Below, piece after piece: positions 25,736 through 50,422 of a stretch of DNA of 64,000 bases. The DNA lies in the NCBI GenBank assembly GCA_051294905.1, contig CM119372.1:37636001-37700000 (forward strand), read 5' to 3'. Position numbers and translations under genes: made by a program. The DNA is from Botryllus schlosseri. Lineage: Eukaryota. The notes beneath the pieces were generated by a model. The model was not told the DNA's origin, searched no databases, and was given only the letters and a program-made list of their open reading frames with translations. Numbering within the stretch: position 1 is the first letter of the stretch; each line of letters begins with the position of its first letter.

Positions 25736-28700
25736 TTATATATCATGCCATAGCGACTTCACCTGTACACGAAATGGATTCAATGTCTGCACTGCACCTG
25801 CGCGTAACAGGTTTTGCGGTGGGAGAGATTTAGCTATTAGATGGGATCATTTTACCGGTGAAGACCCTAAGATTTTCGTGCGTTTTAATATGTAATTGAA
25901 AACCATAGAGAACATATTATGTATACCACAATCCTACAGCCGAGGTATATAACAACGCATTAAGCACGTTGATTATCAGAGTGTGGGCAAATTTAACCGA
26001 TATGGCATTTCTTGGTCAAGGATTGCTAAATTCCATGATGATTTTTGTAGATCATTTTAGGAAAAAAAGTTCGTTTTTGGATCAATATAACTATAAGATT
26101 GCGCTAATGCGTATCTCTTTTTTATGTTATTGTTGTTATCAAAAGAATACACAAATAAAATTGGATGCTTAGATTTATCTTCGATAACGTCACAAACAAC
26201 GTGTTGTCGTATGAGGGAGAACATGAATATAATTTTTGATCTTGAGTGTATGCTCTCACTTGAAGTTACTTTGACTTGGAAAATGCTAACTTTACTTCTG
26301 GCGAGAAATGTACTTCGACTTAAGTACTAACAATTATTACTCCTAATACCTCTAGATATTTCACAATATTGACCAAAACGACCAATATCGTCATTTAGTA
26401 ATAGAAAAAATGATGCTGTGGTGTTGTGCGCTTAACATGTTCAACCTTATCTTCATAGTAAAATATATAAAATGTTTACCTTTATTAGGTCCGTGATAGT
26501 TACTTCGCAACGGTCGATTGACTACGTCCTTTTCCCCAAACGCCCATATCACATTAAGAGGCCCTTCCTGTTGCGAACAGGATAGGATTATTCAGATCTT
26601 GTCATGTTAAATGTAAATTATAATCGGCATGCAATACATAGGCACGAGCTGTTAATAATAAGCAATGTTTATCTAAGTGCAGGGCTGTGGAGTCGGTAAA
26701 TTTTACCACCGACTCCGACTCCACGCATTTTCCATGGACCAACTCCGACTCCTGAGTCTTTAAAACTACCGAATCCGACTTCGACTCCGACTATAACCCC
26801 GACTCCAACAGTATTACCAATTTCCTTCGAAAATTATATGCCACAGTAACGGTTAAATGGCTATCATATAACCAATGAACATATGTAAACATATGATTAA
26901 CGATGGCATGCAAAATTGTTTCATTCTGGCGCAGCTCAAATTATTCACAAAGTATGAAAGATTGCCTTTCTAAATATCCTTCCTTTTTCTTTTTTTTTCA
27001 GTTTTTATGACATGGACTCTCTAAAAACCTATAATATGTATGAATCATTCAAACACGACATATATCCGATCCTGTATAAATAAAATGTAGATTAAACAAT
27101 CGTAGTGTGGCTCTTGTGTATGAGTCAGCAACTAATACAGAGATACATCTTACTAATTTTCTTATTACACACTGTACTGATTACAAGCACACACACTCTC
27201 ACACTACTAATAGGCATTGGTCAAAAACGAAATTTAGGAAGTAGTCAATTAGCATATGTTTAGTCCACATGCACTTGATCAAGTATTCAAGGACTAGGAC
27301 TTGCAGTCTTTCATAATCATTTGTTCGACCCAAGCAGCTAAGCTACACTACAAATATTTTTAATTTTGTCAAGTGGGAATGAGCGTTTGGTTATATTTAC
27401 ATCAATTTTACAACCAGGCGATATATTTGCTCTGTCACGATATCTTGTTATAATTCCAAAAATTGCATCAATTTGTGACTGCGTCGCGAAGATGCATATT
27501 GCTCCTTTCTTCCTCTGTGCAACTGAATTGTAATCTGCAAATATTGTCCAATTGTATCTATGTCAGGGGTCGCCAACCATTTCGGCCAAAGGGCCACATG
27601 AGATTTACGAACCATTGTGTGGGCAACTTGAATGTTGATAATCTCTTTTTAGTCGTCCGATACAAACGAACCGAATAAGGTAACATTGTAAACAAGACTT
27701 AGATGACTACGTTTTAAAATTGATAACAATTATGCCATGAAAGCTACGTGTGCAATTGTACAGTGTGCAGTCATGCCCTGGTCGCGCGAAGCGCGAAATT
27801 TATTCAAAGGTAATGAATGAATTCGATCAATAAATATATTACTGGCATATATAGGGGTGCCTCCATACAGCAATGGGCTCATTTGACAAGGACAGGATTA
27901 TTTGGCGTTTTAGACATAGTAATATCGACAGTTTCGGTGAACATGCCTCTGTCATTTTGTGCAAATGTTTCATCGCCGACGATCTCGCTTCGAGCGCACA
28001 AGCAAAGTCGCATGTTGGACGACACGTTATCTCCAAATTGCGAGTATAGTTGGACTCAATTATGAAAATTACGCGTATTTATAACTTTCAGGGGGGTTCC
28101 AATACTACATGCAAGAAATGTGACAATAAATCATGCGAAGTGATGAGAAAAATTTCAAGTCAAGCAAATCTGGTACGATGAATGTGGTTGGCCCCTGGTT
28201 ACGCCAATGCGTCAAAACTGCTGATCTAGTGATCATCAAATTTCGCGGTCAGGCTAATCAAATTTTGGTTGGCCTTGCAATTTTACCTGATGATATATCT
28301 GATTTCGAGAATTACGTCACAGGCCACACAAAGCCTTCTCGTGGGCCACATTTCGCCTGCGGGACACGGTTTGGCCGCCCCTGATCTGTATCGTTACTAA
28401 TAACAGTGATTGATGGTACATAAAAATCCTATTATAGATTAGTAATTCAAAGATACTTTTGAAAGCAATTGTTTTCATGATAAAAAGTTGGAGTCGGATT
28501 CGAAGTCAGAGTCATTTCCACAAACTCCGACTCTGACTCCAACTCAATCCAGCGAAAATTAGCCAAACTCCGACTCCAACTCCACCGACTCCGAATCCAC
28601 AGCCCTGGTAGTATGTCGATATCGCTTTTAGTTACATTGTTATTAATCAATAAAATCACATGGTAAGATACGCTGGAAGCGAAAACAAGAGATGCGAATA

Positions 28701-31700
28701 TTATTATTTAGGATAAAAGAGAATATTTTACTCATCGAGGAAATATAATAGGTCCCGCACTACACCACCGAGGATTATCTAGTTCAGTGGTTCCCAACTA
28801 GGGAGGAATTCCCCCCTTGGGGGGAATTTTACAATTTTTAGTTAGGAATTTCACTTTAGAATTGTAACGGATTCCCAAATTGTTCATGTCCGAACTGTCA
28901 TGTGGTCAACCAGTTATATCCGAACGTATGCTCCTTATGACTGATTTTTTGCTGGAAGTATGTTCAAATGCTGTTTGAAATCTCTTTTTCACATACAATT
29001 CCCCCTTGCTTTTTTAAAACTAGTTCAGATGTGTTGCAGTTTGAAAGACAATTTTTTACGCCGGCGTCGACCTCTCAATGAAATATATCCTAAGCGAGCA
29101 AATGTGGTGCCGAATCTATCACAACAAGGCCTCTAGTGAAAGTTTTTATCTTATATTTTCAAGTCAACATTTTCAGACAGGGATAAAATGTTCCAACGTC
29201 ATCGATTCAAGTCAAAGAGATCGCTAGCCTAGCTTTATTTTTAATGAACAGCTACCCGATCGAAAAAAGACATGTTAAACCTGTTGCAATGTTGTCGAAA
29301 CTTAGTGGTTGCCCTAAATTAAGTCACGAGGCTCCGAGTCACAAGTCAATCTCACTTTCATAGTTTTGACTCGAGTCAAGTTGAGTCATTTTCAATTCAC
29401 CATTGAGTCAAGTCCGAGTCCAAGTCACCGAGCAGAGGGTCAAGTCCGAGTCATGGTATTATGACTCGAGTCCGAGTGCAAGTCATTGTGCTGACTGCTC
29501 AGTTTCCAGTTGAAGTCTTGTTAAACCCACTTTTCATAACACGGTTTGGTGACATTGAATGATTTGGAATTATGATATACTAATTTTCCTCACTTTGAGC
29601 AGTTTCTTGTCTCATTTTCAAGTACCAGGACCAATACACGAAATTGCAATAGGGTCGTCACTTGTTCTTCGAAATTACAATGAAATGTCGGTCTTGTCGT
29701 CTTATAGTCTCGAGTCATATGACTTGGTTCGAGTCATGCACAATGACTCAAGTCCAAGTCGAGTCAATACACAGATTGTCTCGAGTCGAGTCGAGTCGTT
29801 TCCGTATTTTGATAAAGAGCTTCTTGGAGGTACAGAACTTCAATGTACTATTCAATTGTATATTTTGATAAAATGACTCGAGTCAAGTCGAATCATCAGA
29901 AAATGGTGACTCGAGTCAGACTCGAGTTTGGGCAAAAATGACCTTTTTTAATCATCGGGCAGATTTCTTCCAAGGGGATGATTTTGGCTAAAATTTCCGC
30001 CAATGGAGGCACGAGATGAGAAAGGTTGGGAACCACTGATCTACCGTAAACCGGGGTAAATTTGGACACTAAGCAGTAAAAGATATAAATGGTTATTGAT
30101 GGAAAAGGGTTGCCGCTGGATGTCCAATTCTTTTTCATGAGGCAACAGTACCACAAGTAGTCTCGAATCTCGATAAAAGGTGGATTCATTTCACTACCAG
30201 ATAAACTTGACTCAACATTGATAAATTATTGGCGGGGTCAATTTCATCAAAATTGATGGCCATTAAACTTCATTCAACCAAACATAGATAGCATGTGATT
30301 CATAGATTCAAAACTTGGCAGCAAATACCTCTAAGTAGTCTTAATCCATGGCAAAAATCTCAGTGGGCTCACCCTTAGATCAATACAAGAAAATGTGATG
30401 TTCAAAGTTACCCCGTCAGATTTTATCAGAACGGGGTAACTTTGGACAGTTGAAAATATGATATTTAGAGCTCTGGAAAGTGGCTGCTTCATCTGTGTCA
30501 AAGCGTATCGTCAACTTTATTCCTAATGACCGGCCAGATGGCTTTTTAAAATGGAATGAGAAGGTTATAAGTTTTAAGGTTTATAGGTCCCAATTGATGA
30601 AGGCATGACGGAAAATTTGGATAAGTGGTGAATAAGGGGGCATTACCGTTCATAAACTACCGAATTTTTTTTTGGGGGGGGGAGAGGGGATTAGGTAAAA
30701 ATCATGCAATAGGCCAGACATATACTATTTTGTTTCTGTTTTAGCCACTGCTCTCATTAACTCTTACCAAATAAGCCTCATTGACGAGGTTTCATAACCA
30801 ATAGAGTGTAAAGGCATACAAAAAACTACATTGTCCAAAGTTACCCCACATGCAGGGGTAACTTTGTACACGGATAACTTACAAAAATAAGGTACTTATT
30901 TATGACCATGACGATTTGTGTTTAGATAATTCTAATCTTTGCTCCACGACCCCTGAAAAACACAAAACTTGCCTACCCTACACCCTAGCATTTCCAAGAT
31001 ACAAAGCGGAATTGTTGAAAATTGTCCAAAGTTACCCCGGTTTACGGTAGTTTCATTCGGAATCATGGTTATCATAGTTGTCGGATGCCATGTCTGTAAC
31101 TGAGATACGGGCTAAGCAAAACTCACTCATTACCTGCTGGTCGTGAAGTCCGCGGTGAGATATTAACCCACACATTTGTCTAATCCTCGTTTATTCAAAT
31201 AGCTACAGCCTATGTGGGTTGGAGGCTACATGAGTGTCTCGAATGAGAGAGAATTCACGTAATATCGTCAAAGAAATATATCCCAAGACCATGGACAATA
31301 TTAGGCGATTGTCTCGCGTAATGGTGTGGTTTTCCAATAGCAAGTCCCTGCTAAACGTCAGGCCAAATGTTATGGATGAGCATTTATAAAGGGTATTCAG
31401 GAGTTTTGGATAGTGGGGAATGCAAACTCGGATTAAATCTGAAGTGGGGAATGAAGCCGAAAAGGCCGGGAACCACTGATCTATACTAATGCGCGAAGGG
31501 AATTGACGCATTCTGTAGGAATATAGTCCAGCGAGAGCATGCCGAATAACGGTGGTACAAACGACCCAGTACACACTCCATGGGATTTGCTATACATGCC
31601 CGATGCAAGATGGAAGTGAAACAAGTCATGATTACCGGATTTGATTCCCATATGCCCAAGCATTAAGATACAAAAGTCAAAACACAAAGTGGGCTGTGCT

Positions 31701-34700
31701 TTCGGTGATCACATTATGAAATATCATGGACGCCCGAGGTCAAATAACCGTAGAAGGGCAATAGTCATGCAACTCGAAAACAATACTGAAAACAATACCA
31801 ATTCAGGAATGACGTACCGATATCATTCGGTCAAATTTCCTTTCCTTAGCTTTCAACGATCTCTTGAAGAATACGATCGTTCTTTCATCGGTTTCTTGCG
31901 AAACTAGCACCTCGACATCCTGGGATTTGTCCACCCGCGGCACCCTGTTTCCGCCGGCCCAGACGTCCTGATCGAAAGGTTCAATACTGTCATTCAACTT
32001 GAGAGACACTATATGCACTAATGGTATTGCAATCGACTCTCATACATGATATAAAAACAGGTATTTGGTAGCGAAGTAGGCCTACTTTCACTACATAATA
32101 AATATAATATGATAACACACTTTGAAGAAAATATTATTTAATGTTTCATGTGGTAGGTTTAGTTTACTTTCTTACTACGAGTGATATTGCCATAATAACT
32201 TTTACTTGAGAATATCGTGATAACTAATGCATCCTTTTCATACTGCGGCAGTCTTCTAGAAAGAGGGCATCCTATAACATATAACAAATTCAGGAGCAAT
32301 ATTCCCTCTAATTTCTCACGAGTCTGCGCGCACTCACCAACTCACTGCGCTGTCCCCTGGACAACAGTGCGTAGCGACTAAAAAAAAGTCATCACTCCGG
32401 CTTTTTGTGCTCACCTGAGATTTCCGGTGCGCAGAGACCGTGAAAGCAATGCGCAATTGCGCACGCGCGCAGCTTAGAGGGAACAGTGTTTGGGACATCC
32501 AGTTATTCAAATTTTGAAAAATTATGTGGATTGGTGTTACTGTAACTCAGTGCTTTTCAACCTGTGTGACGGTTCGAACTTGTGCGAATGAAAATTTTCA
32601 CTGCGAATGACAAGCGTGGTGCGAATGGTGCGAATGAAAATTGTCCATGTTTCTGACTTTTTTTGACGTGAAATAATTCAAATAAACCTAATGCGATACT
32701 AAGAACAATGAGACCATTAATTCTGTCGTTTGGAAGCAATTCTAAAAACTTGTTGGTAGTTGGGCATGGGAAAAAGAGGACAATTTTTCAAAATTATCAA
32801 ACTTGAATGCCGGTGAAAAATCCTGAAAAAATGGTGTATTTTTTCCACTTCGTGGTCGGTTGACCAAAAAAAAGGTCAACCTTCTCGCTCAACGCCCAAT
32901 CACTAAAATAAAAAAATACTGAGCGTTAGTTCAGTGCTATTTTATGGTATCTCGGTCGAATTTATTTTGCCCTATGTTTTACCAAAATTCTCAAAAAAGA
33001 GGACAAAATCGCAAAAAGGAGGACATTTCGGCGTCCTCGGAGGACATTTTCAAAAACCCGAAAAATGAGGACAAATCCTCCTAAAGGAGGACGTCTGGTA
33101 ACCCTGGTTTTTCTAGTTCACAAGCGAGGAACGCTCCCGATGCGTGTATATTGCGAAGTTTGAGAGAATATTTCCGCCTGGAAAAAAGAATTAGTGGAAT
33201 CGGTATCAGTTGCTCGGACTCGGAGTCATCCTCCGTGTACGGACCGTGTAGGAATGTAGGTAATAGTAGCCGATGCCAGTCTTGGCATTGGCATATTTGA
33301 ATGCAAATTATTGGAATTTTGGCACATATTCATGTTGGTTAACAGCAGAATTTTGCGTTTCTTCAACTATAACAATTAGCAAATTAAATATGTAACAAAG
33401 TGTTGTTTAGCCTACTCGTGTACCTAATCAAGTAATAGCGGTTGTTAAAAATAAAATTAGTGCAAGCACATTAGTGTCTTACGTGCGATGAATCGTTATC
33501 ATGCATTACATCGAATTATTAAGTCACTGGGCAGTTTATCTACGGACCATTGCAATAGCTTGTTTGTAATGTTACCTACACCATTTAGGCTCTGACACGC
33601 TTTCCGGTTCTTGGACTGCTGATCTCAGGTCGGGTCTAGTTCGTAAAGACATAGGCCTATATATAATTAATTGGTGATGCCACTAAGCTTGCTGATCCAC
33701 AGGAAAAGTTTGCCTAGTTCGTATTCGAGCCGCCTTTGTACCACAAACTTTGTAGTATTCTGAACTCTACCGAGTTAACTTGAGCACCCTCGGCAGAGCA
33801 AAATCAAATCTACCCAGACGTATGTCTTACGATATTCCTTCTGCAGCCTAATTTAGGCTTAATTCGACTGTTGAAACTTATTACTCGTTATGTATATAGA
33901 TATTGGGGATAGTAAATATAATTTGGCAATATTTCAGTCAGTTTGACAATGTTGTACGATACCCCTAGGAGTCATCCCGTAGTTGACAACCCGGAGCGAT
34001 ATAACTGTGTGGTAATCATGAATCTTATAGAAGTTATAATCATTCAAGATGGTGCAAGTGTTGGCTTTGGCAACACAAGGATAGCGCAAGTTGTTCTTGA
34101 AAGATATGTTGAATTGTGTGCTGGATAGATAAGAAACGAATGAAGCCTAAGCCTGTCCATAAATAATCGTCATCAATTATTCGGATTGTGTGGGTTTGTA
34201 TAGAAATGCATTCGTGATTGTAACGCCCACCGTACCATCCAATCGGCTAACATACCTTAGTACGGTGAAACATCTTTTCGAATGTTGTCAGAAAATGAAC
34301 CAACGGTGCTAGTCGCAACATTGATGCTACCATTCAAGTGCAGTTTCACTACTTTGTACGTTCTAAATGCGAACTCAATCACATCGCGATGACGTGACAT
34401 GTCGACTTAGCGAAAAAGTGATAATGTTGCGAGTGGATATTGTTCTTGGGTTCGCCCTTTAAACTTCGAAGGAAATAAATACACGATACTCCTGGAAACA
34501 ACGAATACCTTGAGAACAACGGGAGTGCTATATCTGTGATTTTTCGAGTGCAGTGATTTTAGTACTTGATTATTCAATAATAAGATACGTTGAATGGAAA
34601 GTATTGAAGCTCTGTATACCTCCAAGAAGCTCTTCGAATACAAAAGTGAGAAGTTTCTTCATTTTCGTTTTGTGTAATAAATTCTGGCTGGCTGGTGCGA

Positions 34701-37700
34701 ATGAAATTTTTTTGAAACAAAAAAGTACGAATGGAGCTCAAAAAGGTTGAAAAGCCCTGCTGTAACTGATTGTACGCAAGGCTTCTGGATACAAACCGGA
34801 TTCTAGTTCAATCAGCATCTACTCACAAATACGTAGCTCTTTCCATTTCTCACTCCCATCATTGCCATGTCGGCTTGCTTCATGTTCTTACCCGGTGAAA
34901 TTCCGAATCCTACCCATCCATTTGTCAGTGCTCCCAACTAAACGAAATGACGTTTATATTAGTGCATACGCATACGCATACGCATGGCTTATATATACCA
35001 ATGAAAAACCCAGGGTTGTAACCAAGTCACAAAGCTCCGAGTCACAAGTCAATCTCACTTTTATATTTTTGACTCGAGTCAAGTCGAGTCATTTTCAATT
35101 CCCACCGAGTCAAGTCCGAGTCCAAGTCAGCGAACATGGGATCCAGTCCGAGTCATGGTATTATGACTTGAGTCCGAGTCCAAGTCATTGTGTTGACTAC
35201 TCAGTTTCCAGTTAAATCCTTCCTAAACCCACTTTTTTAACTCTGTTTGGTGATATTGAATGGTTCGCATTTATAATATATCAATTTTCCTCACTTTTAG
35301 CAGTTTCTGGTCGCATTTTCAAGCACCAGTACCAACAAACGAAATCCCAATAGTGTGTTGGCTTCGAAATTACAATAAAATATCGGTCTTGGCCGTCTGA
35401 ATCTCGAGTCAATGACTTGCTTCGAGTCATGCGCAATGACTCGAGTCCAAGTCGAGTCAATACACAGATTGACTCGAGTCGAGTCGAGTCATCCGAAAAT
35501 CGTGACTCGAGTCAATACAACCCTGGAAAAACCTTCAAAAAATGGCATGGGCCAAATTTTGCAGACATATCCAGGTATTTAAAATTTCCGTGCGAATCTT
35601 ACCTGGTAAAATATATTCATTTCAAAGTCGACGGACCATTGCAGTATCATTTCCGATTTTTCGTCTAGGACAACCTTCCCAGATTTCGGATAGAAGGCAG
35701 ATCCTAAAATGTACAAATTGCACATCAATACATTTGCTAATGCCGATGAACCGACGAATGACTCTCTTTTGAGGATGCGTATGCTAATATATATAGTTAA
35801 ATAGTATATTCATATTGAAATGAACCCGAATATTTTCGGCTGACACTCGTCAGGGGTAATCGTCAGCAACTAGTAGAGAATTGGAAAGAACATTGAATAT
35901 CAACAATCGTATCACAAAATATGACGTCACCAGCATGAAATTTCGAATGAGAGAACGTTCAATGTACTATTTTTAGGTGATACACGAACTCCTTTTGTTG
36001 ACAGAGTTTTGGTTGGTGTATTTTGATAAAAGTTGATTCCAAGGCACACAAATGGAATTGTGAACGACCTCGACCTACGATTCGAAATCGGTCGTCTCGA
36101 TAATTATTCGCACAAATCGGATTATCCAACAGATGTTTGCCGATGGCAGAATTAATGGCCTTTGATCGATCAGCATCAATCTTAAGTGGATGCCATCGGC
36201 AAACATCTGTTGGATAATCCGATTTGTGCGAATAATTATCGAGACGACCGATTTCGAATCGTAGGTCGAGGTCGTTCACAATTCCATTTGTGTGCCTTGG
36301 AATCAACTTTTATCAAAATACACCAACCAAAACTCTGTCAACAAAAGGAGTTCGTGTATCACCTAAAAATAGTACATTGAACGTTCTCTCATTCGAAATT
36401 TCATGCTGGTGACGTCATATTTTGTGATACGATTGTTGATATTCAATGTTCTTTCCAATTCTCTACTAGTTGCTGACGATTACCCCTGACGAGTGTCAGC
36501 CGAAAATATTCGGGTTCATTTCAATATGAATATACTATTTAATTGTATATTGAAGTTCTGTACCTCCAAGAAGCTCTTCTAATATATATAGTAATAATGG
36601 GATTACAGATATTAAAATTTTTACTCGTTTGAGAACAGTGTTTTCTCGAAAGATAATATTTGTAAAGTACGCCCTATTGAATATGTTACGCAATCATAGA
36701 TTACACCAGGATTAGTGATCTGCGCCAAGCATACTGTGAGGCGATGTTCCCTCTATAAGTGGACAAAGTCGCCGCGCACAGAAAAATTAGTTCCGCGCAC
36801 AAAAAAGCGAAAGTGATGACCTTTTTATTTATTTTTTAGACGTTACGCACTGCTGTCCGTGGAATAGCGCAGTGAGTTGGTGAGTGCGCGCAGATTCGTA
36901 AAAAATTAGAGGGAACAATGCTGTGAGGCGGATTTATACACGGTGAAATGAGGTGGATCGTCACGTGGAAGGTTGGATACAAACTAGTCGTGCCCAAAAA
37001 GACGTATTTATAGCTATCCACTACTTTCGTCTATTCATGCTCTGAACCGAATGGATGGTGACTTACTTAAAAACGGATGCACAAGTTGCACTGATGCTGA
37101 TCCTGGAAAACAAGATGGATAAATTGGTTATTGATAATTTTTTAATCATGAAATGAAATCGTTTGAAAAATATTGAAGATAAATAGTGAGAGTAAAGTAT
37201 GGATCAATATTGGGTTATACCATGTGGTTCTTAAACTTTACTAGCTTACGGAACACTTCTCGGAATCCCAAATTCTCGCTGCGTCGTAACAAAATTTAAC
37301 ACAATACATATCTAATTAGACATCTAATTTCAGTTCAGCAATGCGAGGATTCACTTTAGACAGTGTCATGATATTTTTCGGTCCAAAGGCAACAGCGTGA
37401 TACTAATTGCGTACTCACAAATGCGGTTATAAATATAGTTGATGAGAATATAATTTCTATTTCTGAACAGAGTTTGCATTTTGAACCCCAAACTTTCCTG
37501 CGTCACGTACAATGCACAAAACCACACCAGTCAAAGTTAGACAATACCGATCGTGCTTAAATTCTCTGCAAACAATGATAGTCGTCAAGACAGGCGTATC
37601 ATCAGAAATCATGCATGACTTGAGTGTGTGTCGTTAATTCCACGGAGCCTCTGAGACTGGCTCATGGTAGCCCTAGTGTACCATGGAACACCGGGTAAGA

Positions 37701-40700
37701 AACACTGGTTTATGCGGAAGAAATCCCACATTCAGTAGAGTCAAGTTACTCGAGGAAAACGAACCGAAGAAACCTACGACCAACCTCTATTCTTTCCATG
37801 ATACCCTCCACTTTTCGGAATTCCATTTGTGATATCCCTTGGACCATACGCCCATATGATAGTCATAGGCCCATCCTGCAAAATAGATTCCGTGAATATC
37901 TCGAAACGTTAAATTCGAAAATATATCAAAGTCCATTATGCAGTGATTACTAACGAAACCGGCATTCAAGTACATTTATTTTGGCGCGCAGAATCACTCA
38001 TATCAACCAAAACTTAGTATGAATGCATCAATCGATTCAGTCAAACCGCAAAGCTAGTCATGTACACAGAACCTGACAGCGTATACTACCACAGTTACGG
38101 TGTATATATTCAGCGAATGCTGAGGTGATCAACGATGGACAAAGTACTCAGCGTTTGCGCTAACGTAAATAAAAAGAAAGCCCGCAAATTCCCATGTAGA
38201 AATAGCACTTTTCAAGACATGCCAAGACTACATCAAGCGGAAGCGAAGAATTGAACTCTGAAAAGTACTCACTATCTTATCAATGGTTTCAAAAAGTAGA
38301 GGTGTTCAAGGAATCGCATGAAGTTTTAGCAGGTAATTGAATGTGGCAGGTTCAGTACTTGCAAGTAATATCTTCGCGAAAAACATAGACGTGATACAAA
38401 CTTACGCAAAAACTACTTTCCAATTTCACAGATCTATATTGTAAAAAGTGAAAAAAATCTGTGAAAACTATTCAAGCGGAAGTGGAAGTCATCTACCTAT
38501 AGTGTATATAGTGCAAGTAGTTAAAACCTGCTTGATTACTCTGAGAAAACGTAACATTACATTTTCACTGATTCCCTCTAGCAGTGATCTTCAAACTGTT
38601 CTTAATCACAATAAAAATTAGTAAACTGGATAGGCCTAGGTCTCATAATATGATTGGTGACGTCAAAGCCAACAGGACGATGATTCATGATATCGGCTTC
38701 TGGAGTTAATCATTGCTGTTCAAGATTGATCACATGTCTGCAATAGCATTATTGGTAACTCAGCACTATTCTTGAATGATACGTTGATTGCTTACGCAAT
38801 TGACGTGGTTAAATGCGCTATCGCCTCATGGTAAAAAGGATCTCGGAGCAGTAGGCGGTAGACAGTTACTAGCGGATGCCATCCCAATTATCTCAGACGA
38901 CCTTGAGATCAATCGTGTTCATCCGGTTCGACACCGTTACTTTTAATCGGGCAATTCGAATAATGGTTCGAATAGACCCGGGGTGTCAAACTCAACTTAC
39001 GTCGGGGGTCGGATTCAAACCTTCAGATCGCTCGCGATACCGACCAGTTCAATGATTCTTAAATATCACGTCAAATCCATGCCCTTGTTTTTGTCTTGTA
39101 TACTTTATGATCAAGCCTATGTACAAGATAGTAAATTACATAACATTACTTTTCTTAAGAATTCTCTTCTAGCAATACCTTTATTCGCAAACCACGGAAT
39201 TTGCGAACATACGATAATTACCCGATTGAATGCAGTGATAACCGGTAAGATAGGGGCTCCAATGACGATATATGGTGGTATAATTCAATGCTCTATTTGT
39301 TTTAGTCGTTAGCCCTATACTATACATATGCGTCGTGAGTAATACTAGCGATTTAACTGTAAATGGAATTTGATTACTTATTATTGCCTAATCGCGATTC
39401 AGGTATCTCTGGAGGTCGCGGTCCTTTTGAGCGAGAATTGTTTCAGCAGTGCGACCACCGTAATATTATCCATATAACCTGTATATGACAGTTTCGCATT
39501 GACGTTGCCGCTTCTCTTAGAAATTATTTTTAGGTACATTTTCCCATAAAACTCTGTACTCAGTGTGCACTTTTTTGCGTTATCCTTGCCTCCTGTCAAT
39601 GCCGACGACTAGAGTAAAACGACTATACGGCAGTCAAATGGTTATCATGTGGCCCATGAGCAATTATTAGTGCTCTACATATGTAGGTGTGAGGGATTAA
39701 ATAAAGGAAACATTTCTTACTGCCAAATCTAAATATTTGTTAAAAATATTCCGGACAATACAAATATTTTCAAATCTACTCATAATTGCTTCGCGGGCCG
39801 GATGAAAGCGTCTGGTGGACTGGATGCGGCCCTCGGGCCGTATGTTTGGCACCCTTGGAATAGACTTCGAATCAGGGATTCGTTTCGCGGCACCGGTCTT
39901 ACCGTAATGTCTCGGTCTGATTTTTCGGACGCCAGGTATTTTTTTCGGAACGTTACAGTTGTGTGCGATGCTGTTTGTGAGTGAGACAATAACTCGACGT
40001 CTTTACTTCTATCTCTGGCAGGAGCCCCATTTCGCTTAGCGAACGTATCCTGTTTGAGTGTACGAACATGAGCTCAATGGAACCGGAAATGACCAATTAC
40101 ATACGGACATGCTCTACTTACCACGATGTAGGCTTCGCCATTAGGTCTGACGCCAGTCATAACTATATCGGAATTGGCCATGCTGTTCATTTTCGAGGCC
40201 AAACCAAATCCAATCCACCCAGTGGTTGGTGCCATCAACTGAAAGTATAGATACGCGTTACTAACACATATATGTGTATTAGGGCTGTTCAAAAATAACC
40301 TTTTTTCCTGAATCTTGCTGGCTACGTGATTAAATCGTTAGGTTGCCTTGAAAAACGACGCACAACAAACTTGAATTCATTCCAACCAATATTCGCGGCT
40401 TTCGTACAGTTTAAAAATTTTGAATTTGCCCAAAAATGCAAAAAAGTTTTTTTTCAAATTTTTCTTCCAACCCCATGAAATTGTTGCGCTGTCTACAAAA
40501 ACGATGCAAAACAAATTTGACTCAATTCCAAGCTGTAGAAGCGGAGTTATTCAAGTTTTTCGATGATAATTCTGGGATGATCCACCGATCAAGGATAATC
40601 CTAGAATTATCAAAGAAAAACTGACATAACTCCAATTTTGGGCAATTTTGGGCAAATTCAAAATTTTCAAACTGTACGAAACCCGCGAATATTGGTTGGA

Positions 40701-43700
40701 ATGAATTCAAATTTGGTGTGCGTCGTTTTTCAAGGCAACCTACCGATTTAATCACTTAGCCAGCAAGATTCAAGAAAAAAGAATATTTTTGAACAGCCCT
40801 AATGTATATATATATATAGTAACATTCTCATCAACATTAGGACATAATTCAAAATGATTTCCAACAGAGTTGATCGAAGTGGCTTAGTTGTTGCTACTAC
40901 AGCCCATAAGGTGCAGTGTATAATTGCCAATGCCAAAAATATGACAAAAAAACTACTAGTAGAAGTAGAAAGGTGTGGGAACCACTCAAGTCCGTATTGT
41001 TTACTGTTGGATTGTCACGAGGCCAATCGCAGTGTACAACTCTTGCCTATAATACTGAAAGACGAATATCCCCACAAATTGGTACGTAGTGGTATATTTA
41101 AACACTGTAACCCAACCGAATCGTGGATTTTATTTTGACAATTCGAAGCTATTACTGAAGCTACTTGGCTAAATTTTACGACGATTTCGGTTCTAAGAGT
41201 AATGCAAAACTACTCAGCAAACTTGAGTGGTTTATAATTGAAGCTTTTCAAATGAAGTCGGAAGTTGGCCTACACTCCACTAATTTCGCTTCCTAACCCA
41301 TTTCAATTGAATAAGTCGAATGCACAAGCCCATATATAGATATACCTCGTGGTGAAGTGATATCTATTGGCGTCTACAGTCTGTGGGGCTGGTAATACCC
41401 ACTCTTTCGCTAATTGCTTATAGACCCGGAGCTACGATACTTGCGCGACAAGTTTTGTGTGATTCAAATGTGTCAATATCAGACTCACGGTGATGTTGAC
41501 GCTCGCGATGTCATTGCCCCATTTCAGCAGAACCGTTTTATCGTCGTCAAGATATTGCTGTCCGCCGTACAACGTGTTGGAGTCAAAATCGTCGCCTACA
41601 ATCAACAAGCATTTGGTGGTATCAAAATTCAAAAACTTTTGAGTATAATGACGCTATTTCAGTCATACAAGTCATTTCAATCAAACGAAATGCGTACATC
41701 TGATATAACGACGAAGAGCTGCTTAATCACCTGTATAATATATATCATCTTCGCTGCCGTCTTCATGCGTCAGATCCGTGACCACGCTACCTGTAGATGT
41801 GTGTCAGGTCATGAAAGCCTACGTACAACGATTAACTCTTCGCAGTCTTACCGCGATTTAGAAAGTGATAATTAACAGGACTTGGACCTCCGACCAAGTC
41901 ATAGATTCCCATGGCGTAGATAAAGAATAACTTTCCCGCAGTCTGCAAGCAGTTCGACATTATAGTGGTACCTAACATTCATACTGGGGGTGATAAATAT
42001 AGTCTGATCACGGCATGCTTACTTTAATAGACTTAATGTCGAACTGATCCGATACTTCTAGATATCGGGTGAATTTCACCGTCGTGTGAGTGCCGTTTTC
42101 CATGCCGGAAAGCAAGTGAACATCTTGCGATGCTTCGACGATCGGAACGTAATTTCCAGTTGCAAAAGCATCCTGAATAAACAATTTCGATTATATGATA
42201 TGCATAATTACTGGGCTATATCCAATTCCTCGTCGGAAATCCATCACATGAGATGTATTAGTAAGCAAGCAGTTATGTAAATGTTTTCTAGTTGCACTGT
42301 TGTATGACGTGTTTTTGGTTTTAGATCTTTTTCTACTTCCCTGTAGCGAATGTTCAGTTGGCCCAGGATGAAGTTTACCTCTACTTTTCATTTTCGCGAA
42401 GTATATAGTAAAGTGTTCCGATAAACTTGCATGGTTTATTGGAGCATAATCATTTCAAATCATATGAGGCTTTACTGGGTTGTTACCAAGTCACAAGGTT
42501 CCGAACCACAAGTCAATCTCACTATTGTAGTTTTGACTCGAGTCAAGTCGAGTGATTTTCAATGCATCACCAAGTCAAGTCCGAGTCCAAGTTGGCTAGT
42601 AGAGGGTCGAGTCCGAGTCATAATGTTTTGACTCGAGTCCGAGTCCAAGTCATTATGTTCACTGTTAGTGTTTTCAGTTCAATCCAGTTCAACCCGCGTT
42701 TCTCAACTCTGTTCGAGTGATAGAGAATGGCTCCCTTTCATAATATTGCAATCATCCTAGCTCGTAACGGTTTCTGGTCCTATTTTTCAAATATCGGGAC
42801 TGATAGATGAAATAGTAATAATGTTGCAACATTACTGTTCTTCGAAGTTGCAATGAAATGTCTCTCTTGGCCGTCCTAGTCTCGGCATTGAAGCCGCTAT
42901 AAAAACTACAGCATCAAGTCATCCGCATTATAGCCAGGGCCCCAAAGGGACCGGGATGTATGTCCAACATATCACTGCTCAAAAAACTCTGTGTCCTAAA
43001 CATAAAAGATACGCGGAAACTGTAAATTGCAAAGTTTATGTATCAGTTGCACTGCGGCCACTGCCCCGGAAACTTCAATGACTTCTTTACCTCGCTGTGT
43101 AAAGTGCATAAGTACGACACACGCGTGTCCACGTCGTCCAACCATGGTGTGGACACAGGGAGAGTGTACGGCTCACTGCATTTGGGTTACGTCAGGGGTT
43201 CTCAACCTTGGGGGGCGCCCTCCTTGGGGGGCGCGGGAAGCTCTCAGGGGGGGGGGCGAGAAATTGACCACGTCTGTATGAATTCTGACTAAGAATGTGC
43301 TTCTCAATCATTCTGAGAAGACGATTGTTAAAGATGAAACTTATTTCGTATTCAAGAAATCTCGCCAAATTCTAACTCCAGCAGTCGCGCTCAACGGAGT
43401 ATAAGCTGATTTCAACTTCATTTGAGCAAATTTTTGATATTCTTTCAAAATTTGGAGCAATTCCCACGTGCAGGTCATTCATTACTTCATAGCTTGGGCA
43501 GTAGCCTAAAGTTCGGTGCGCTGGGTAGCTGTTGCTAATAATTGGCGAACTTCACTGGCCAAGACAGATTTAGATGCAAGTTGCACGGTTTCGCCCTCCG
43601 TTAAGCTACCCTAAATAAACACAATTTATTCAATTCCAAAAGTGATCAAATTTAGCATGGCAGTACAGAACGATGCCGTGCTCTCTATAGTCACTACCAG

Positions 43701-46700
43701 CATTAGGATTAGTCTCAGTGCAACCTACCTTGAAATAATCTGATGTCCTGTTCAATGTTTTTTTGCTATTTTCAAACAAGTTTGGGGAAATTTGCCAGAA
43801 ATGTTAGAGACTCAACAACTGGAATGCGGATTCAAACTGGGCGCAAGACATACCATATCTATACTATTAGATCAGGGAAGGGCAACCTGTTGCTGTAGAA
43901 GGGAATTTGTACGACCGTCGACACCTAATTGAATTAGTATGTGTTGGCATCCGTGGACATGCAAATTGAAATTACGACTTCACTGCCGAATTTTTGAGAG
44001 ATTTTAATTCATCTTGAAATTTTCTTCACACTCCGCTCAATTCAACATAACTTGATTTTTCGATTTTGATATAGTAGCGCCCTTCTCACTCTGGGCCGGA
44101 ATCGTGTGCTCCTCACGAAAGAAATTTGTTTATGGTACATTTGGATGATTTTAATATATTTCGACTACCGATACAATCGACAATCCTGATCGGGGGTCGA
44201 GAAATAACAGCATGCAACCAAGTGACTAATAACATTTGGCCCACCCGAAGATGCATTGTCATTTATAACTTGCCCTACATTTTAAAATACACTCCCTCAA
44301 TGAACCCTACCTGTGTATCTGATCACATGGGCTAAGAGAGGATAAATATTTGATAATAATATGTGATACTGCTACTATTAATCACGGAATTCATTCGTGA
44401 ATCTGAAAAATTTTCGCGCTCAGCGTGTCAATAAACAATCCCAGCATCTATTCATAACATTGCGACTCGCGATTTCGGTACGTACAAAAGGCTTTTGCTA
44501 AAAGTATAATAGTCCGGATTCCAGAGTTCACCGGCAATGGATATGGACAGATTAGGTATTTCGCGTCCAGTTAGTTCATTACGGCTATGCCCTGGAATGC
44601 GGCCTTGGGCTACATAAGTAGGCTAATCAAAATGGGCCGTGATTAGCAAAAAGGTTGCCTACCTCTGTACTAGATGATGTGCTCTTTTAGACATGACGAA
44701 AAGTGTAGGGGGGGGGGGGGGGTCAGGGGGGGCGCAATATTTTCGACCATCCCCAAGGGGGGCGCGAGTCCAAAAAGGTTAAGAACCGCTGGGTTACGTC
44801 ATACTTTCCATTTGACGAAAATTCAACTTTACGGCCATTTTTGACCGGCTTGCCGACGGCAAAATTCGATAAAACGGGTATCAATGGAAAGCTGCTGCTG
44901 TACTGATTAGGAAAATATAAATTTTATTCTATTCATAGTCCTGCAACCCCCAAAAATCAGCCTAGTAATTTGCATTGTGTTCGAGTTTTTGCATTGTGAC
45001 GCAACAATTCTGTCTGGCAAAACGAGAGTGAAGCTGAGAAGAAAGAGCCAGACAGACCTGTTGCGTCACAATGACAAAACTCAATAACAATGAATACTTC
45101 TAGGCTGATTTCAGGGGTGCCAGGAATATGAACAGAATAAAATTTATATTTTTGTGATCAGTACATCAGCAGCTTTCCATTGATACCTGTTTTATTGGAT
45201 TTTGCGCTCGGCAAGCCGGTCGAAAATGGCCTTAAAGTTACCTTTGGTCAAATGGAAAGTATGACGTAACCCAAATGCAGTGAGCTGTTCATTCTCGCTG
45301 TGTCCACACCATATAGGACACTATGGTCGAACTATCCTCTGGTTGACAAAAAAGATTATCGCTCTATCAAATAAGCCGGACCTAAAGTGTGTAACAGTAT
45401 CTCGCCGGCTATCCGACAGTTGTCGAGCATGTCCACATTCAAGTCGAAATACAAGCAATTTCCGCTGAATGAATACTAGTCAGCCCTCACCATTTACCGG
45501 ACCACGACCTGACATATCGATCTCGCCATCCGTCGCTTGCCACTTCATATTATATTCTTTTCCTTTCATTGAGTGTGCATGCCTCCTCTTTACATCGCCC
45601 AGGCCCAGGTGGGTGTCTGATCTTAAAACTACTCCTAGTCGTTTCGGCATCTTCCTATCATTCATTGTATTGCAGTCTTGTGATGTTTTCAAGTGATGAA
45701 ATTTTATGAATAAACTTGAACTTGAGCTTGTGTCATATGACTTGGTTCGAGTCATGCAGAATGACTTGAGTACAAGTCGAGTCACCAAAAAATCGCGACT
45801 CTAGTCGACTTACGACTCGACTCATTACAACCCTGAAGCTTTATCAAATTATTCGAAAGTAACTGTAAATCGCGCGTAGGGTCGTGGTAACAGGTAAGGT
45901 GTTGATAGTTTTGAGGACGTGATTCGGTACTTACGTACAAATACGGTCCCTTGTCGTCATACCCAAACATAATAATGTCAGCATTCGTCATTCCATTTAC
46001 TTCTGAAAATCCTATGCCCATCCAACCGCGAGTCTGCCCAGATACCTGTTCGATAGACGGAAACATTGCGAACATAAATAAATGATACACATTGGTGGAG
46101 GTCTAATCAATAGCGTAGCCACGCTGAGTACTTTGACCAACTCTATGGTCTTCAAGATCAGTAGAAGTAGAGAAAATAGCCTTCCGAAACTTCGCGCGTT
46201 TCTGCAATTGAAGCGCCCAAAACTGTAGCTAATTTATAGGTGCGAGCGACCCCGATACGAATAGTAACTGCTCATGCCGAGCTCAAACGTAGCGATAGTT
46301 AAGCGTCTATCCACCTCGAACGTAATATTTCCGTCTGTAATGTTCCAATCTATCTTCATTCTCCCTGTTCCCGATGTGAAGCTCCTTTCAACATGTAATT
46401 CCATTTCTTCAACCTCTCCTCCCCCTTCAACTGGATCTTCCTCTCCTTCTCCTTCCTCGTCTGTACTATCCCCTTCTCCATCTTCGCCACCATGATCGTG
46501 ATCGCCGTGGTCAAGCTCCTCGCCTGCGAATGAATAACTTTGTGTTGCTACCGTTTACATTTGGTACTAGAAGTTATACAGATAGCCTATTCTGACCATA
46601 CATTGTTTGTGTTACTATTATATGCAACATGAAACCTGCATACAACGGGTTCGCATTGACGTTTACGCCACTTTTAATAAATACTTTTGGCCCAATTCTA

Positions 46701-49700
46701 TAGAAAAGTGTGAAATAGATCCGACATTTTTGTAGTCTCGTAAGTTGTGATGTCAACGTCACAGAAACATTCCTAGTGGTAACTACAGAGTGAAACCGAA
46801 ACAATGCCGTCGGAAGGTTATAACGTGTCAAATGAACATGTTATACATTTGCTGTGTCGAGGAAACATTTATGTGAAAGTATATCTTTCTAAAATTCACA
46901 AAATGTGTCGGAACTATTCTGGATAATAATATGAGCATTTTTCAATTTACATTACACAGACTTGCTTCTCGTGCCGGATATAATCGTCTGGCGCGCTGCA
47001 TGTTTGACACCCCTGAGGTTAGGATTAAGGTCGACTCGCGGTTGGGTATACGATTTGGTAATAACTCGGTTAGGGTTGAAGAAGCCAATAAATACGACGT
47101 GCGTGAGAGTTAAAGAGACGAAATAAAAAGTTAGTATTGTAAAGTTACACATGCAAGTCGCATATTATGACCGGTCGCTTTAAATTGCGCTAAAATGTGT
47201 GTTCAAATAGTCAACAATGATCAATAATACTCATATGTATGGTGTCCTTGTTGTTGTCGTTGTTGTAGTTTGTGGTATTCATGGCGTTTGTTGACTACCA
47301 TGGTCATTTACACTGGGCCAATTTTCTTCATTCGTATTCCGAAGGGGGATACTTGTCGCACGGCCCACTTCTAGGCTTTTATAGGACACCGCTTAAACGG
47401 ATGAGATGGCGAGAGAGGTATGATATCCTTTGTCCGATATAAGTAAGAGATTGGTTTCTTAGCATGGCGGGATTCGAATAAGCGCACGCCATCATCCTAA
47501 ATGAGCAGTCAAAAGGAAATGTAACACAGATTTGTACGACATCGCGAGGAGTTAATCATTAAGAATAGCATATTTCAGAATGTGTATGTCTCGAACCGCT
47601 CGTTTGGCAAGATTCTGAACTTTTTTCACGTATAATGAGTCAATGAGCATCGGTGTTGTATTTAAAGGCTCTTATACTCTTATACGAAATGCGGCATGGT
47701 TTGCCAATTATAATGCGCTAAGCTTACCCATCGATTCGGTCTCTGCTGTAGCCACAGTTGCTACCGGCATTGAGGTGTCAGGCATGAACGGCTTCTTTAA
47801 CAAATCCAGAGACATTATACCTGTAGGCAAGTATAAAGCAGCTAAAGGTTGTTGTCATACCCATCATAGAGCAGATTTACTTATCTAGAAAGGTTGTGTT
47901 CAGCATAACCAATATACAGGCCCATCTACATGAGGCTTACATCGCCGGCTCAAAGTTTGCCAGAAAACACATGATCCATGCGTCAAACGTCAAAGAAACT
48001 CACCCCGTTTTCTAAAATGGTATTTGGCTTGCTGTACTGTTTGAGGGTCCGCTGATACATCATACGCAAAAAGGACTCCGACCATTCCTGGCTGTAATCA
48101 GGACTCGATTTTAGTTGAAGAAAGTGAAGATATCTTATAATTTTAAAAGTGATTTCGTACCGTAATTGCAACATCATCATCTCCGTTTCCACTTAGCGTT
48201 CGTCGAAACAAAACAGTGGTGTATCCATCCTTTTCGTCGGCCGAAAGTAGTGTCACATCTTGACTTTGATCAAGCTTTGGTCTAGTATTTCCAATGCCAA
48301 TTGTATCCTGTGAATATTATGTCACCTGACATACTTTTAAGAACTTAATTAGCAGATGTATGGGCGCTTTCCTAAAATAGGTAGTGCATACTCTAAAGTT
48401 TGCAATTTACTAAATGGCAATCCCAGCCGAATGCTGAGTTCAGACTTGCACAAACTGTATATTAGGGTCACCATATTTTGGAATCGGGAAAGGAGGTCAC
48501 TTTTACCAAATCGGAAAAGTTAGCTGGTCAAGACTGAAATCAGCGGATTTTGATATTTTTGCTGGAAAATTTGTGGAGTTGACTAAAAAAAAGGTCATCA
48601 CTTTCGTTCGTCTTCCGATTTACGCACTTTTTACTTCAATTTAGTGGGTTGTCAAAATGCGCGACTAGAACGATAACTGGAACTGAGGGCCTAAAAAAAA
48701 TCCGCGACTAATCGACTAAAACACTGCTAACTAATAACTGATAATAGCGATTTATGAATTGCAATTGACCGAAGACATCTGAGAGATAGAATCGAAATTT
48801 CAAAAGAACAGATTTTTAAGGTTTTAAATGGTTAGTAGTTATGACTCTGAGCCAGCAACGGCTGCTAGAGCATGACACAACATATTAACTGTGATGCGAT
48901 CCTTGCAAAACGACGACGTTTTCTAGCTGATCTACAAGTAAAGTTTTTTATGAGCACAACTAGAACTAGAACTAGAACTATTAAAAAACCAGTAATTAAT
49001 CGACCTTCAACTAACGAGATTGATAGTTTGTACATGTATGAGTGAGTATCATAACACTTTTACCCTCACATGATTAGGCAAATACAAATATGCGCACTTA
49101 CAAAAATGTAATTCGTTCCGTCATCATAAACACCAGCCATTACAATGTCCGCACCCCTCATACCCCTGGTGACTCCTGGCTTGTGTATGCCAAGTCCCAC
49201 CCATCCTGTTGTTTTTGCTCGAAGCTGAAATTGACGTAATCATTTGTTTTCACTACTACACATTCTGTTGGATAAGGTGTTGCGCCGCTTGATAGCGGAA
49301 AATATGAATCGTTCGCGCAGCAACGTTATCTGTTTACGAGACAGAGTTTCTGCGATGGACACTAGGGATGGGGCAAACTCAGGTACGGGGACTAGTATAT
49401 ACGTACACGTCTATCACGTGTCGCGAAATACAAAACATCTAATCGGTATAACTTATGCGCCCAACTGTATGTGATCACAAATTTGATGGTATTTTCCCGA
49501 CTCCCCCTCTGGGTCTCGACGCAGCATGTACCCTCATGCACTAACCTAGGTTCGAAGCAACCCCGTGGAATGAATTGGTGGCTCACTAAAAATGGTTGAC
49601 TTATAGTTTGAATTACGATAGAACTCGACATACCAGATAATTAGCCAGCGTGGGTATTAAATTGGAAGTACACGCGATGCCGTAAATGTCCACTTTAGCA

Positions 49701-50422
49701 ATTAAAGGTATAGGCGTATAGAGACTTCCAAATCATGTCGAAACCACTGTAAGAGGAAGTACAAAACGAAGGTATGAGCGGTACTGAAGTAATTAGTTTC
49801 ACATAGTAGATTTCATCAACGGATTGTTGGGGAGCAGTTAATCGAATGCGGCCATACACATAACTGTAAGATTCGTCGTCAAGTGACCGAGGAATTTGAT
49901 GACACTACAAATATAGGTAAAAGTTTCGAAAATACTTCAGTCACGGTGACAGACGGTTTGATTGAACACGGTTCCCGTGACATTTTGACCCGTAAAATCA
50001 TATCTTCAATATATTTCTACTATACAAAATACGAAATGTAAAACTAGGTAGTTTTTATTAAAGACTGTTTCGTTAAAATCGAAATCGCCAAAACACATAA
50101 CAAATTGATAAATATAGTGTACGCAGATTAAAATTGCTGGTAGCCTACTCTCAAAAAAGTAGACGTCGTTCGTTACGGCGGATCATCAAAAACATCAAGC
50201 TTCTAACATTGTTGAGTTGCGCGTTTAAGTTCGTAGTTTTTGTTCTGGGGCTGATACCTTGAATATGATGTACCCAGCTCCTGCAGTCCATTCCAAGTCG
50301 AAGTCGCTCATAAGAGTTACTTTATGTTCGAATGAGGTCGAAGTCGAGATTGGATCTGTATCTGCTACTATTTCATGGCAGTTGGCCAAAAGCAAGCAGA
50401 CCAGAATTGCCTTGAAAATCAT
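25736..50422 (-). CDS. Secreted tetra-DOMON-domain protein (putative multi-heme b-type protein), ~748 aa, 20 coding exons
   Basis: Exons assembled by hand, all GT-AG and phase-compatible: 50422-50258, 49224-49102, 48307-48161, 48091-48004, 47820-47728 | 46523-46315, 46045-45935, 42172-42023, 41942-41852, 41790-41731 | 41595-41489, 40238-40122, 40049-39903, 37875-37785, 37102-37067 | 35703-35603, 34937-34827, 31967-31818, 26567-26480, 25797-25736 (total 2247 nt). Signal peptide MIFKAILVCLLLANCHEIVA. Each repeat has the DOMON motifs: W strand, GW(V/M/I)G(L/I/F)G, M..(A/S)D(I/M), D....P..(D/E).S.DV, (F/Y/W)A, YH...(R/K)G. The terminal exon (GAVQTLNPFRVQVKSLWHDI*) is the least certain. Confidence 0.88.
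26680..28607. mobile_element. MITE with CCGACT(CCGACT) arrays containing a nested hAT MITE (27564-28383)
   Basis: TIRs CAGGGCTGTGGA / TCCACAGCCCTG; the inner element CAGGGGTCGCCAACC / GTTTGGCCGCCCCTG is related to 60904-62123. Confidence 0.8.
28785..30038. mobile_element. hAT MITE (CAGTGGTTCCCAAC TIRs) with an internal GACTCGAGTC-family piece and a PLE tail
   Basis: TSD ATCTAGTT on the left; the right TSD is split at its TA by the next element. Confidence 0.8.
30044..31047. mobile_element. TA-targeting (Tc1/mariner/pogo-like) MITE
   Basis: TIRs CCGTAAACCGGGGTAA..TTTGGACA / TGTCCAAAGTTACCCCGGTTTACGG, flanked by TA on both sides. Confidence 0.85.
32548..34759. mobile_element. hAT-type non-autonomous element
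   Basis: TIRs CAGTGCTTTTCAACC / GGTTGAAAAGCCCTG; perfect TSD CTGTAACT. Confidence 0.8.
35011..35525. mobile_element. MITE with GACTCGAGTC arrays
   Basis: TIRs CAGGGTTGTA / TACAACCCTG; perfect TSD GAAAAACC. Confidence 0.88.
35824..35867 (-). ncRNA. Mirror copy of the hammerhead ribozyme on the minus strand
   Basis: Exact reverse complement of 36472-36515. Confidence 0.8.
36472..36515 (+). ncRNA. Minimal type I hammerhead ribozyme (PLE pLTR)
   Basis: gctgacgatt-accc-CTGACGA(36486-36492)-g-tgtcagc-c-GAAA-atat-TC-gggt. Predicted cleavage after C36511; palindromic AATATT stem III. Confidence 0.8.
36742..36920. mobile_element. Short MITE (TGTTCCCTCTA TIRs)
   Basis: TSD CTGTGAGG on both sides; an inverted homolog lies at ~32296-32488. 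Confidence 0.75.
38979..39857. mobile_element. hAT MITE
   Basis: Ends GGGGTGTCAAAC / GTTTGGCACCCTTG with CGGGCCGG subterminal motifs. Confidence 0.65.
40280..40801. mobile_element. Foldback MITE with ~150-bp arms
   Basis: TAGGGCTGTTCAAAAAT...GAATTTGCCCAAAA and its reverse complement; a degraded relative lies near 23820-24260. Confidence 0.85.
42475..45835. mobile_element. GACTCGAGTC-family MITE hosting three further nested elements
   Basis: Ends CTGGGTTGT / ACAACCCTG, TSD AGGCTTTA/AAGCTTTA. Contains a foldback (~43143-45325), hAT 43193-44791 (TSD GGTTACGT) and hAT 43873-44667 (TSD TATTAGAT/TACTAGAT). Confidence 0.8.
47247..47495 (-). mobile_element. SINE of the same family, intronic
   Basis: Shared body (GCGGTGTC..AAAAGCCTAGAAGTGGGCCGTG...ATGACCATGGTAGTCAACAAACGCCATGAATACC) and a (CAA)n tail. 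Confidence 0.7.

Follow-up and report, generated by a model that had tools for sequence, protein, structure and literature searches.

A predicted secreted protein of four DOMON domains in Botryllus schlosseri and its DOMON-only relatives in Styela clava

What might an animal do with an extracellular protein composed of DOMON domains and nothing else? This question is raised by a minus-strand gene in a 64,000-nucleotide (nt) stretch of the Botryllus schlosseri genome (GenBank assembly GCA_051294905.1, contig CM119372.1, forward-strand positions 37,636,001 to 37,700,000), which is called the window here and whose own coordinates are used throughout. A first-pass annotation, made from the letters alone, had described a secreted protein of 748 residues with four DOMON domains (D1 to D4), all retaining a Met/His pair of heme ligands, and had suggested an extracellular tetra-heme electron carrier or heme scavenger. 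The gene is real and expressed, and that description of it was correct except for the last exon. The product, a chain of DOMONs alone, belongs to an ascidian expansion that has not been described; this architecture is found often in databases.

Exon boundaries were read from the minus-strand sequence, a frame was assembled and its introns were checked for AG/GT. The 20-exon frame of the first-pass model could be reproduced in this way, with 748 aa, AG/GT at all 19 introns and no internal stops; its end could not. RNA from four runs of the same species (X1, X5, X21 and X23) was mapped to 22201-42200, which spans exons 8-21. In all four runs exon 19 is spliced from 26480 to 25215 (21 reads in X23, 52 reads in X21, contigs in X1 and X5), and the depth of the bin containing 25797-25736 was 0, 0.02, 1.8 and 0. 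The model's last exon is intronic and unused in these runs, and a splice donor after 25763 is ruled out by the RNA joints. With its RNA-based 3′ end, the corrected gene has 21 exons and encodes 752 aa (Table 1).

Within the mapped interval, at least 11 of 13 introns are present among the RNA joints listed, with 9-10 and 15-16 outside that listing. A 2590-nt X5 contig passes through exons 8, 16, 17, 18 and 21. Because the corrected model with a 33-nt leader added accounts for its offsets and, exactly, for its total length, the contig also supports joints 9-10 and 15-16 and, through its length alone, exons 1-7. In the 3′ untranslated region (UTR), an intron (25138-24711) begins 4 nt past the stop codon and is followed by a non-coding exon from 24711; X23 and X1 carry an allele with two differing letters next to this junction. 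Single-cell read depth is maximal in the bin 24202-24868, an AATAAA lies at 24214 and the contig ends at 24418.

The protein is built from four repeats with a common four-exon module, the same intron phases and a mutual identity of 32-38%. A scan with Pfam DOMON (PF03351), which covered the 17 exon peptides other than those of exons 10, 15 and 20, matched eight of them, two core exons per domain (E 8e-4 to 1e-8). The best single-exon match (E 1.1e-8) scored 35.7 bits versus a curated cut-off of 32.7, which two of the eight pass alone, and a purpose-built profile detected four full domains. These DOMON matches lie far above chance expectation. The 752-aa protein has a mature mass of ~81 kDa, an isoelectric point of 4.8 and four N-glycosylation sequons, and both of its Cys residues fall within the leader. 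Residues 187-248, between D1 and D2, form a 62-residue linker with 24 Asp/Glu, no Lys/Arg and three His.

By hydropathy, the N-terminus is hydrophobic (top window 1.91 at aa 1), as it is in most relatives, and no hydrophobic or transmembrane (TM) segment follows it, the highest window past aa 25 being 1.21. The C-terminus is polar (last window -0.62), unlike a glycosylphosphatidylinositol (GPI) anchor signal of the AIR12 type. The protein would therefore be secreted, as first proposed. The 752 aa contain no b561, monooxygenase, reeler or TM parts, the RNA-defined stop following D4, and the RNA-defined 3′ end holds no catalytic or TM exons past 25763. When 13 relatives, including monooxygenase, b561, ferric-reductase, lytic polysaccharide monooxygenase (LPMO)-like and tyrosinase fusions, were compared with the window by tblastn, DOMON exons were the sole matches; Cu2_monooxygen and Cu2_monoox_C had no match in the gene or elsewhere in the 64 kb. 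Open frames in 20000-26600 showed nothing catalytic-looking by eye. The first-pass claim of an array free of b561, copper-monooxygenase and reeler exons is thus upheld.

Do the four domains hold heme? All eight Met/His motifs quoted in the first-pass annotation were located on the minus strand, from 49167 to 26501. The pairs Met77/His170, Met294/His388, Met468/His562 and Met631/His724 lie 93-94 residues apart and share two columns when 238 domains of 69 proteins are aligned, isoforms and cluster duplicates having been removed beforehand. Both residues are present in all four window domains and in 206 of 234 others (a count inflated for Met, as weighed below), at identities of ~30-48%. In human DBH the Met position is taken by Leu and the His is missing, and its structure paper describes a DOMON without both heme ligands that binds no heme (PMC4846438). 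Met/His ligation of heme b is described as established for the cytochrome domain in cellobiose dehydrogenase (CDH) (PMC10691727); the residue-level equivalence to the CDH ligands is taken from that account rather than from our own alignment.

A three-domain Styela clava relative, P0009 (34% identity over 512 aa), was used for a fold model in place of the window protein. Its AlphaFold model (predicted local distance difference test 85; predicted template-modelling score, pTM, 0.55; one low-confidence linker) has the Ig-like beta-sandwich of the DBH/CDH type: the match to the DBH DOMON had Z 18.5 (root-mean-square deviation, rmsd, 2.4 over 154), and those to the CDH and pyranose dehydrogenase heme-b domains had Z 14.2-14.6 (rmsd 2.8-3.2 over 150-158). 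Across heme-b domains including those of ethylbenzene dehydrogenase and nitrite oxidoreductase, Z ranged from 12.3 to 14.6, and antibodies reached at most 6.7. A PDB sequence search with a short exon profile gave chance matches only. ESM Atlas returned DOMON-like fragments, where 24% of 198 members carrying PF03351 is weak evidence. Because the relative's fold matches heme-b domains, and because DBH, which binds no heme, is without both residues, each domain of the window protein probably binds a b-type heme.

To which proteins is this array related? HMMER returned 783 proteins at E ≤0.001, of which the best 150 made up the listing used. The top three and several more among the matches listed are uncharacterised Styela clava proteins with DOMON as their only Pfam domain. 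These DOMON-only proteins (LOC120337231, LOC120337511, LOC120338002, LOC120338410, LOC120338136 and LOC120337234) include arrays of 12 (plus a C-terminal TM segment), 6, 6, 3, 2 and 2 DOMONs, and five of the six genes have a record on a contig whose length, 22.5 Mb, is identical; P0028 and P0165 are perhaps versions of one gene. A Styela MOXD1-like enzyme with two DOMONs is likewise among the matches. Styela proteins are the best BLAST matches of all four window domains (37-48% per domain), and LOC120337231 shares 33% identity with the window protein over 770 aa. Among the Styela DOMON-only proteins, 28 domains out of 33 have both ligands, and the 12-domain P0003 has lost a ligand in 4 of its 12. 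Family linkers are recurrently acidic, His-rich or Thr/Pro-rich; one P0005 linker has 77 His in 391 residues. The window's full-length protein was absent from the word-based and HMMER results, and tunicates other than Styela clava were not returned by the word-based searches, which are insensitive at such divergence, with the best 150 of 783 HMMER matches as the other source.

When 124 of these 238 domains were placed in a quick tree, one clade, with a support of 99 in the SH-like approximate likelihood-ratio test, took in the four window domains, every one of the 33 domains from Styela DOMON-only proteins and the two DOMONs of the Styela MOXD1-like enzyme. The window domains do not cluster together, D4 being placed with three Styela domains instead (95). 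The tree label 'OnlyNonAnimal' was preassigned and is confirmed for P0012 alone. Best matches, tree placement and sole domain type assign the protein to a Styela-type DOMON-only family on sequence grounds. The first-pass annotation had named the FRRS1/SDR2 type, with the CDH cytochrome domain and AIR12, among heme-binding DOMONs. The window domains are not of the FRRS1/SDR2 type: the SxDxxMGxD motif defined for FRRS1/CG8399 DOMONs (PMC10691727) is missing in all four, and the domains are of the DBH/MOXD1 sequence type.

The family extends beyond this one gene in the window. The 3′ end of a neighbouring paralog, known from sequence and continuing beyond the window, consists of a last DOMON that keeps its His and, after a short exon of linker, a hydrophobic C-terminal exon that could be a TM segment or a GPI signal. 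By tblastn its DOMON is 47% identical (E 7.5e-18) to the last DOMON of P0003 (LOC120338002), and its presence beside the DOMON gene fits a local cluster.

What might four such hemes do? The reading we favour, at about an even chance, is a chain of loosely linked heme-b modules that relays or buffers single electrons in the extracellular space, similar in this respect to AIR12. Each DOMON would hold one b-heme between its Met and His. Reduction would come from an outside donor, possibly ascorbate, superoxide or a membrane b561/CYBDOM reductase, and electrons would pass on to an acceptor, perhaps a copper monooxygenase or linker-bound Fe(III). The linker, acidic and His-bearing, may bind metal, and a copper monooxygenase is suggested because of the kinship of these DOMONs with the MOXD1-like enzyme. 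The domains would most likely be separate beads on linkers, with D3 and D4 possibly packed, an arrangement favoured because the His-to-next-Met spacings are 124 (D1-D2), 80 (D2-D3) and 69 (D3-D4) here and 69-539 across the family.

Several points weigh against this relay. The search profile held the Met motif, so Met retention among the matches is inflated; His, which lay outside the profile, is present in 221 of 238 domains. The fold belongs to the Styela relative, and neither a Met-His nor a heme-heme distance was obtained from its model. Five of the 33 Styela DOMON-only domains are without a ligand, and such losses imply that a heme-free role exists for those domains. The tree clade also takes in P0047, an unrelated EukProt protein, with two domains on long branches, and the quick tree gives no direction of origin, whether of the family from a monooxygenase or the reverse. 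Heme loading and the redox partners are predictions. Finally, this anatomy is also compatible with a scavenger or a matrix protein, and the tests run do not separate carrier from scavenger.

An unlikely though serviceable explanation is that the protein scavenges or carries heme as a multivalent binder in the tunic fluid or the blood plasma, acting in detoxification, iron recycling or withholding from microbes, with redox turnover incidental. Solubility, four sites and a chain with no catalytic partner would suit such a protein; the acidic, His-bearing linker could pass on heme or iron, and the membrane-anchored paralog could act as a receptor. However, the characterised Met/His DOMONs (the CDH cytochrome, AIR12 and CYBDOMs) are described, in the sources seen, as electron-transfer cytochromes, and the domains are common to this family and a copper monooxygenase, which requires electrons.

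We are similarly doubtful of an extracellular-matrix or tunic scaffold, in which beta-sandwich repeats on low-complexity spacers would bind cellulose, glycans or metal ions and heme would be optional. Repeat numbers of 2-12, Asp-, His- and Thr/Pro-rich spacers, the soluble and anchored forms in Styela and the ligand losses in P0003 are all compatible with it. There are also precedents: Knickkopf is reported to bind and organise chitin and to require its own DOMON (PMC4140639), and coral DOMON proteins, of which ones with a C-terminal TM segment have already been published, are classed as matrix or adhesion proteins (PMC3204972). Sugar-binding DOMONs, however, are described as being without Met/His (PMC10691727), whereas all four domains here keep both despite their divergence from one another.

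A rigid multi-heme wire passing electrons from domain to domain over long distances, the compact form of the tetra-heme carrier first imagined, is very improbable: the D3-D4 spacing is as tight as that of two Styela proteins, P0005 and P0009, and of two prokaryote-type arrays, P0012 and P0032 (68-78), but the acidic low-complexity linker parts D1 from D2, family spacings run far wider, and the P0009 domains are confident with a pTM that is a weak sign of no fixed arrangement.

Returning to the relay, a broader and quite unlikely scenario may be sketched. In styelid ascidians, the heme DOMON might have been uncoupled from a copper monooxygenase of the MOXD1-like kind and then multiplied into a clustered family of multi-heme proteins, some soluble and others anchored. 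These would move electrons from the cell surface via the blood or cellulose tunic, with copper enzymes or bound iron as the recipients. If true, this would be an animal counterpart of electron delivery by the fungal CDH cytochrome and the first animal extracellular multi-heme electron-transfer chain. Even the plainer relay, as an extracellular electron shuttle, would amount to an ascidian redox system not described before, with possible relevance to the way these animals handle iron and to tunic chemistry. The role of the DOMON in animal CYBDOMs and MOXD1-type enzymes is described as still open (PMC10691727, PMC4846438). A soluble, expressed, DOMON-only animal protein with a Cys-free mature part is a simple object for the study of heme binding, redox potential and partners.

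How unusual is the design? The first-pass annotation had implied that DOMON-only proteins are rare, and the relatives speak otherwise, with a whole family in Styela clava. DOMON is the only Pfam domain family, in at least two copies and without multi-pass membrane segments, in 29 of 61 relatives scanned (17/30 and 12/31), a hand count against a TM list that may include some fragments, among relatives picked by length and repeats under a summed-score ranking that favours repeats. Arrays occur in the coral Montipora foliosa (3 DOMONs), the sponge Ephydatia muelleri (4), the anemone Actinostola (4, partial), the springtail Allacma fusca (2), the ciliate Protocruzia (9), the amoeba Arcella (3) and a Cloacimonadota protein (5). 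Many lineages have thus gained or retained DOMON-only arrays. Literature searches that covered subscription journals thinly turned up no account of multi-DOMON-only proteins or of DOMON proteins from ascidians, and Iyer et al. 2007, reportedly a survey of DOMON architectures, may list such architectures.

Some of these relatives have features of their own. The five-DOMON, lipoprotein-like Cloacimonadota gene (P0012) follows a DUF5777 beta-barrel gene with a gap of 9 bases (L001 5230-8517); in its neighbourhood, one of three loci, TPR and HEAT proteins accompany the DUF5777 beta-barrel and a redox cluster is absent. In the ferric-reductase fusion P0016, His/His replaces Met/His in all six DOMONs, and P0098 is likewise His/His. 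A weak LPMO_10 match precedes four DOMONs in P0140, and P0023, from the amoeba Pyxidicula, has a tyrosinase followed by seven DOMONs.

Beyond the DOMON genes, the window contains a small gene with a 65-aa precursor comprising a signal peptide, a Gln-initial peptide ending in Trp-Trp-Pro-Leu-Gly before RKRR (an amidation pattern) and an acidic tail, which looks like a putative neuropeptide or antimicrobial peptide precursor. Introns of the DOMON gene carry three inverted repeats. Very high read depth over the longest of these suggests a multi-copy foldback element; the other two resemble miniature inverted-repeat transposable elements (MITEs), and a copy similar to one was seen by eye near 16800-17290. 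Two decayed mobile elements were also seen by eye on the minus strand, at ~52900-51300 and 4950-3150, which we take to be a remnant of a long interspersed nuclear element (LINE)-like reverse transcriptase and a broken hAT/SCAND3-like transposase.

Table 1. Positions of the DOMON gene and other features in the window
Feature	Position	Strand	Details
Exon 1: start codon, probable signal peptide (~aa 1-20), first D1 strands	50258..50422	-	hydropathy 1.91 at aa 1; ~33 nt 5′ UTR implied by RNA contig
Exons 2-5: D1	47728..49224	-	49224-49102, 48307-48161, 48091-48004, 47820-47728; Met77 codon 49161-49159, His170 codon 48019-48017
Exon 6: acidic His-bearing linker and D2 start	46315..46523	-	
Exons 7-10: D2	41731..46045	-	46045-45935, 42172-42023, 41942-41852, 41790-41731; Met294 codon 45991-45989, His388 codon 41867-41865
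Exons 11-15: D3	37067..41595	-	41595-41489, 40238-40122, 40049-39903, 37875-37785, 37102-37067; Met468 codon 40181-40179, His562 codon 37800-37798
Exons 16-19: D4	26480..35703	-	35703-35603, 34937-34827, 31967-31818, 26567-26480; Met631 codon 34883-34881, His724 codon 26495-26493
Exon 20: final D4 strand, short polar tail, stop TAA 25144-25142	25138..25215	-	splice 26480-25215 in 4/4 runs
Exon 21: non-coding, 3′ UTR	24418..24711	-	contig end, read depth, AATAAA
Last exon of the earlier model	25736..25797	-	intronic, unused in RNA
3′ end of DOMON paralog	62508..63506	-	
Three-exon gene of 65-aa prepro-peptide	20081-15381	-	20081-19999, 16367-16288, from 15415; canonical splice sites
Possible 5′ non-coding exon of the 65-aa precursor gene	near 21760-21693		
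Near-perfect inverted repeat, intron 15	35789-36550		360-nt arms, 99% complementary; 42-nt spacer
Intronic MITE-like inverted repeat	40268-40813		178-nt arms, 92%
Intronic MITE-like inverted repeat	44825-45239		131-nt arms, 87%; similar copy by eye

How, then, does the protein compare with known systems? The Styela DOMON-only proteins share with it the sole DOMON Pfam domain, mostly kept Met/His pairs, near absence of Cys, acidic or His-rich linkers and the same clade, but have 2, 3, 6 or 12 domains, never four, and include no evident one-to-one ortholog. The two-DOMON, MOXD1-type Styela enzyme XP_039261999.2 lies in that clade too and has the same Met-x-x-Ala/Ser-Asp and Tyr-His-x-x-x-Arg/Lys-Gly motifs; unlike such enzymes, the window protein is without Cu2_monooxygenase domains. 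CYBDOM proteins (FRRS1/SDR2, CG8399, HYP1 and CRR) have Met/His DOMONs, at times repeated, and are tied to extracellular iron reduction, whereas the window protein is without their b561, reeler and TM helices. The cytochrome domains of fungal cellobiose and pyranose dehydrogenases (PDB 1d7b, 4qi3 and 6jt6) appear, via the Styela relative, to have the same fold, but at 11-19% identity and fused to an electron-supplying dehydrogenase of which the window protein has none. The closest functional precedent, likened by description rather than by sequence comparison, is AIR12 of flowering plants, an extracellular b-heme redox protein with a DOMON and no b561. This stand-alone DOMON is reported to react with superoxide and monodehydroascorbate, and its loss to raise apoplastic iron (bioRxiv 2024.12.25.630297; PMC10784544). 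AIR12 is a single domain with a GPI anchor, whereas the window protein is an animal chain of four domains, predicted to be soluble.

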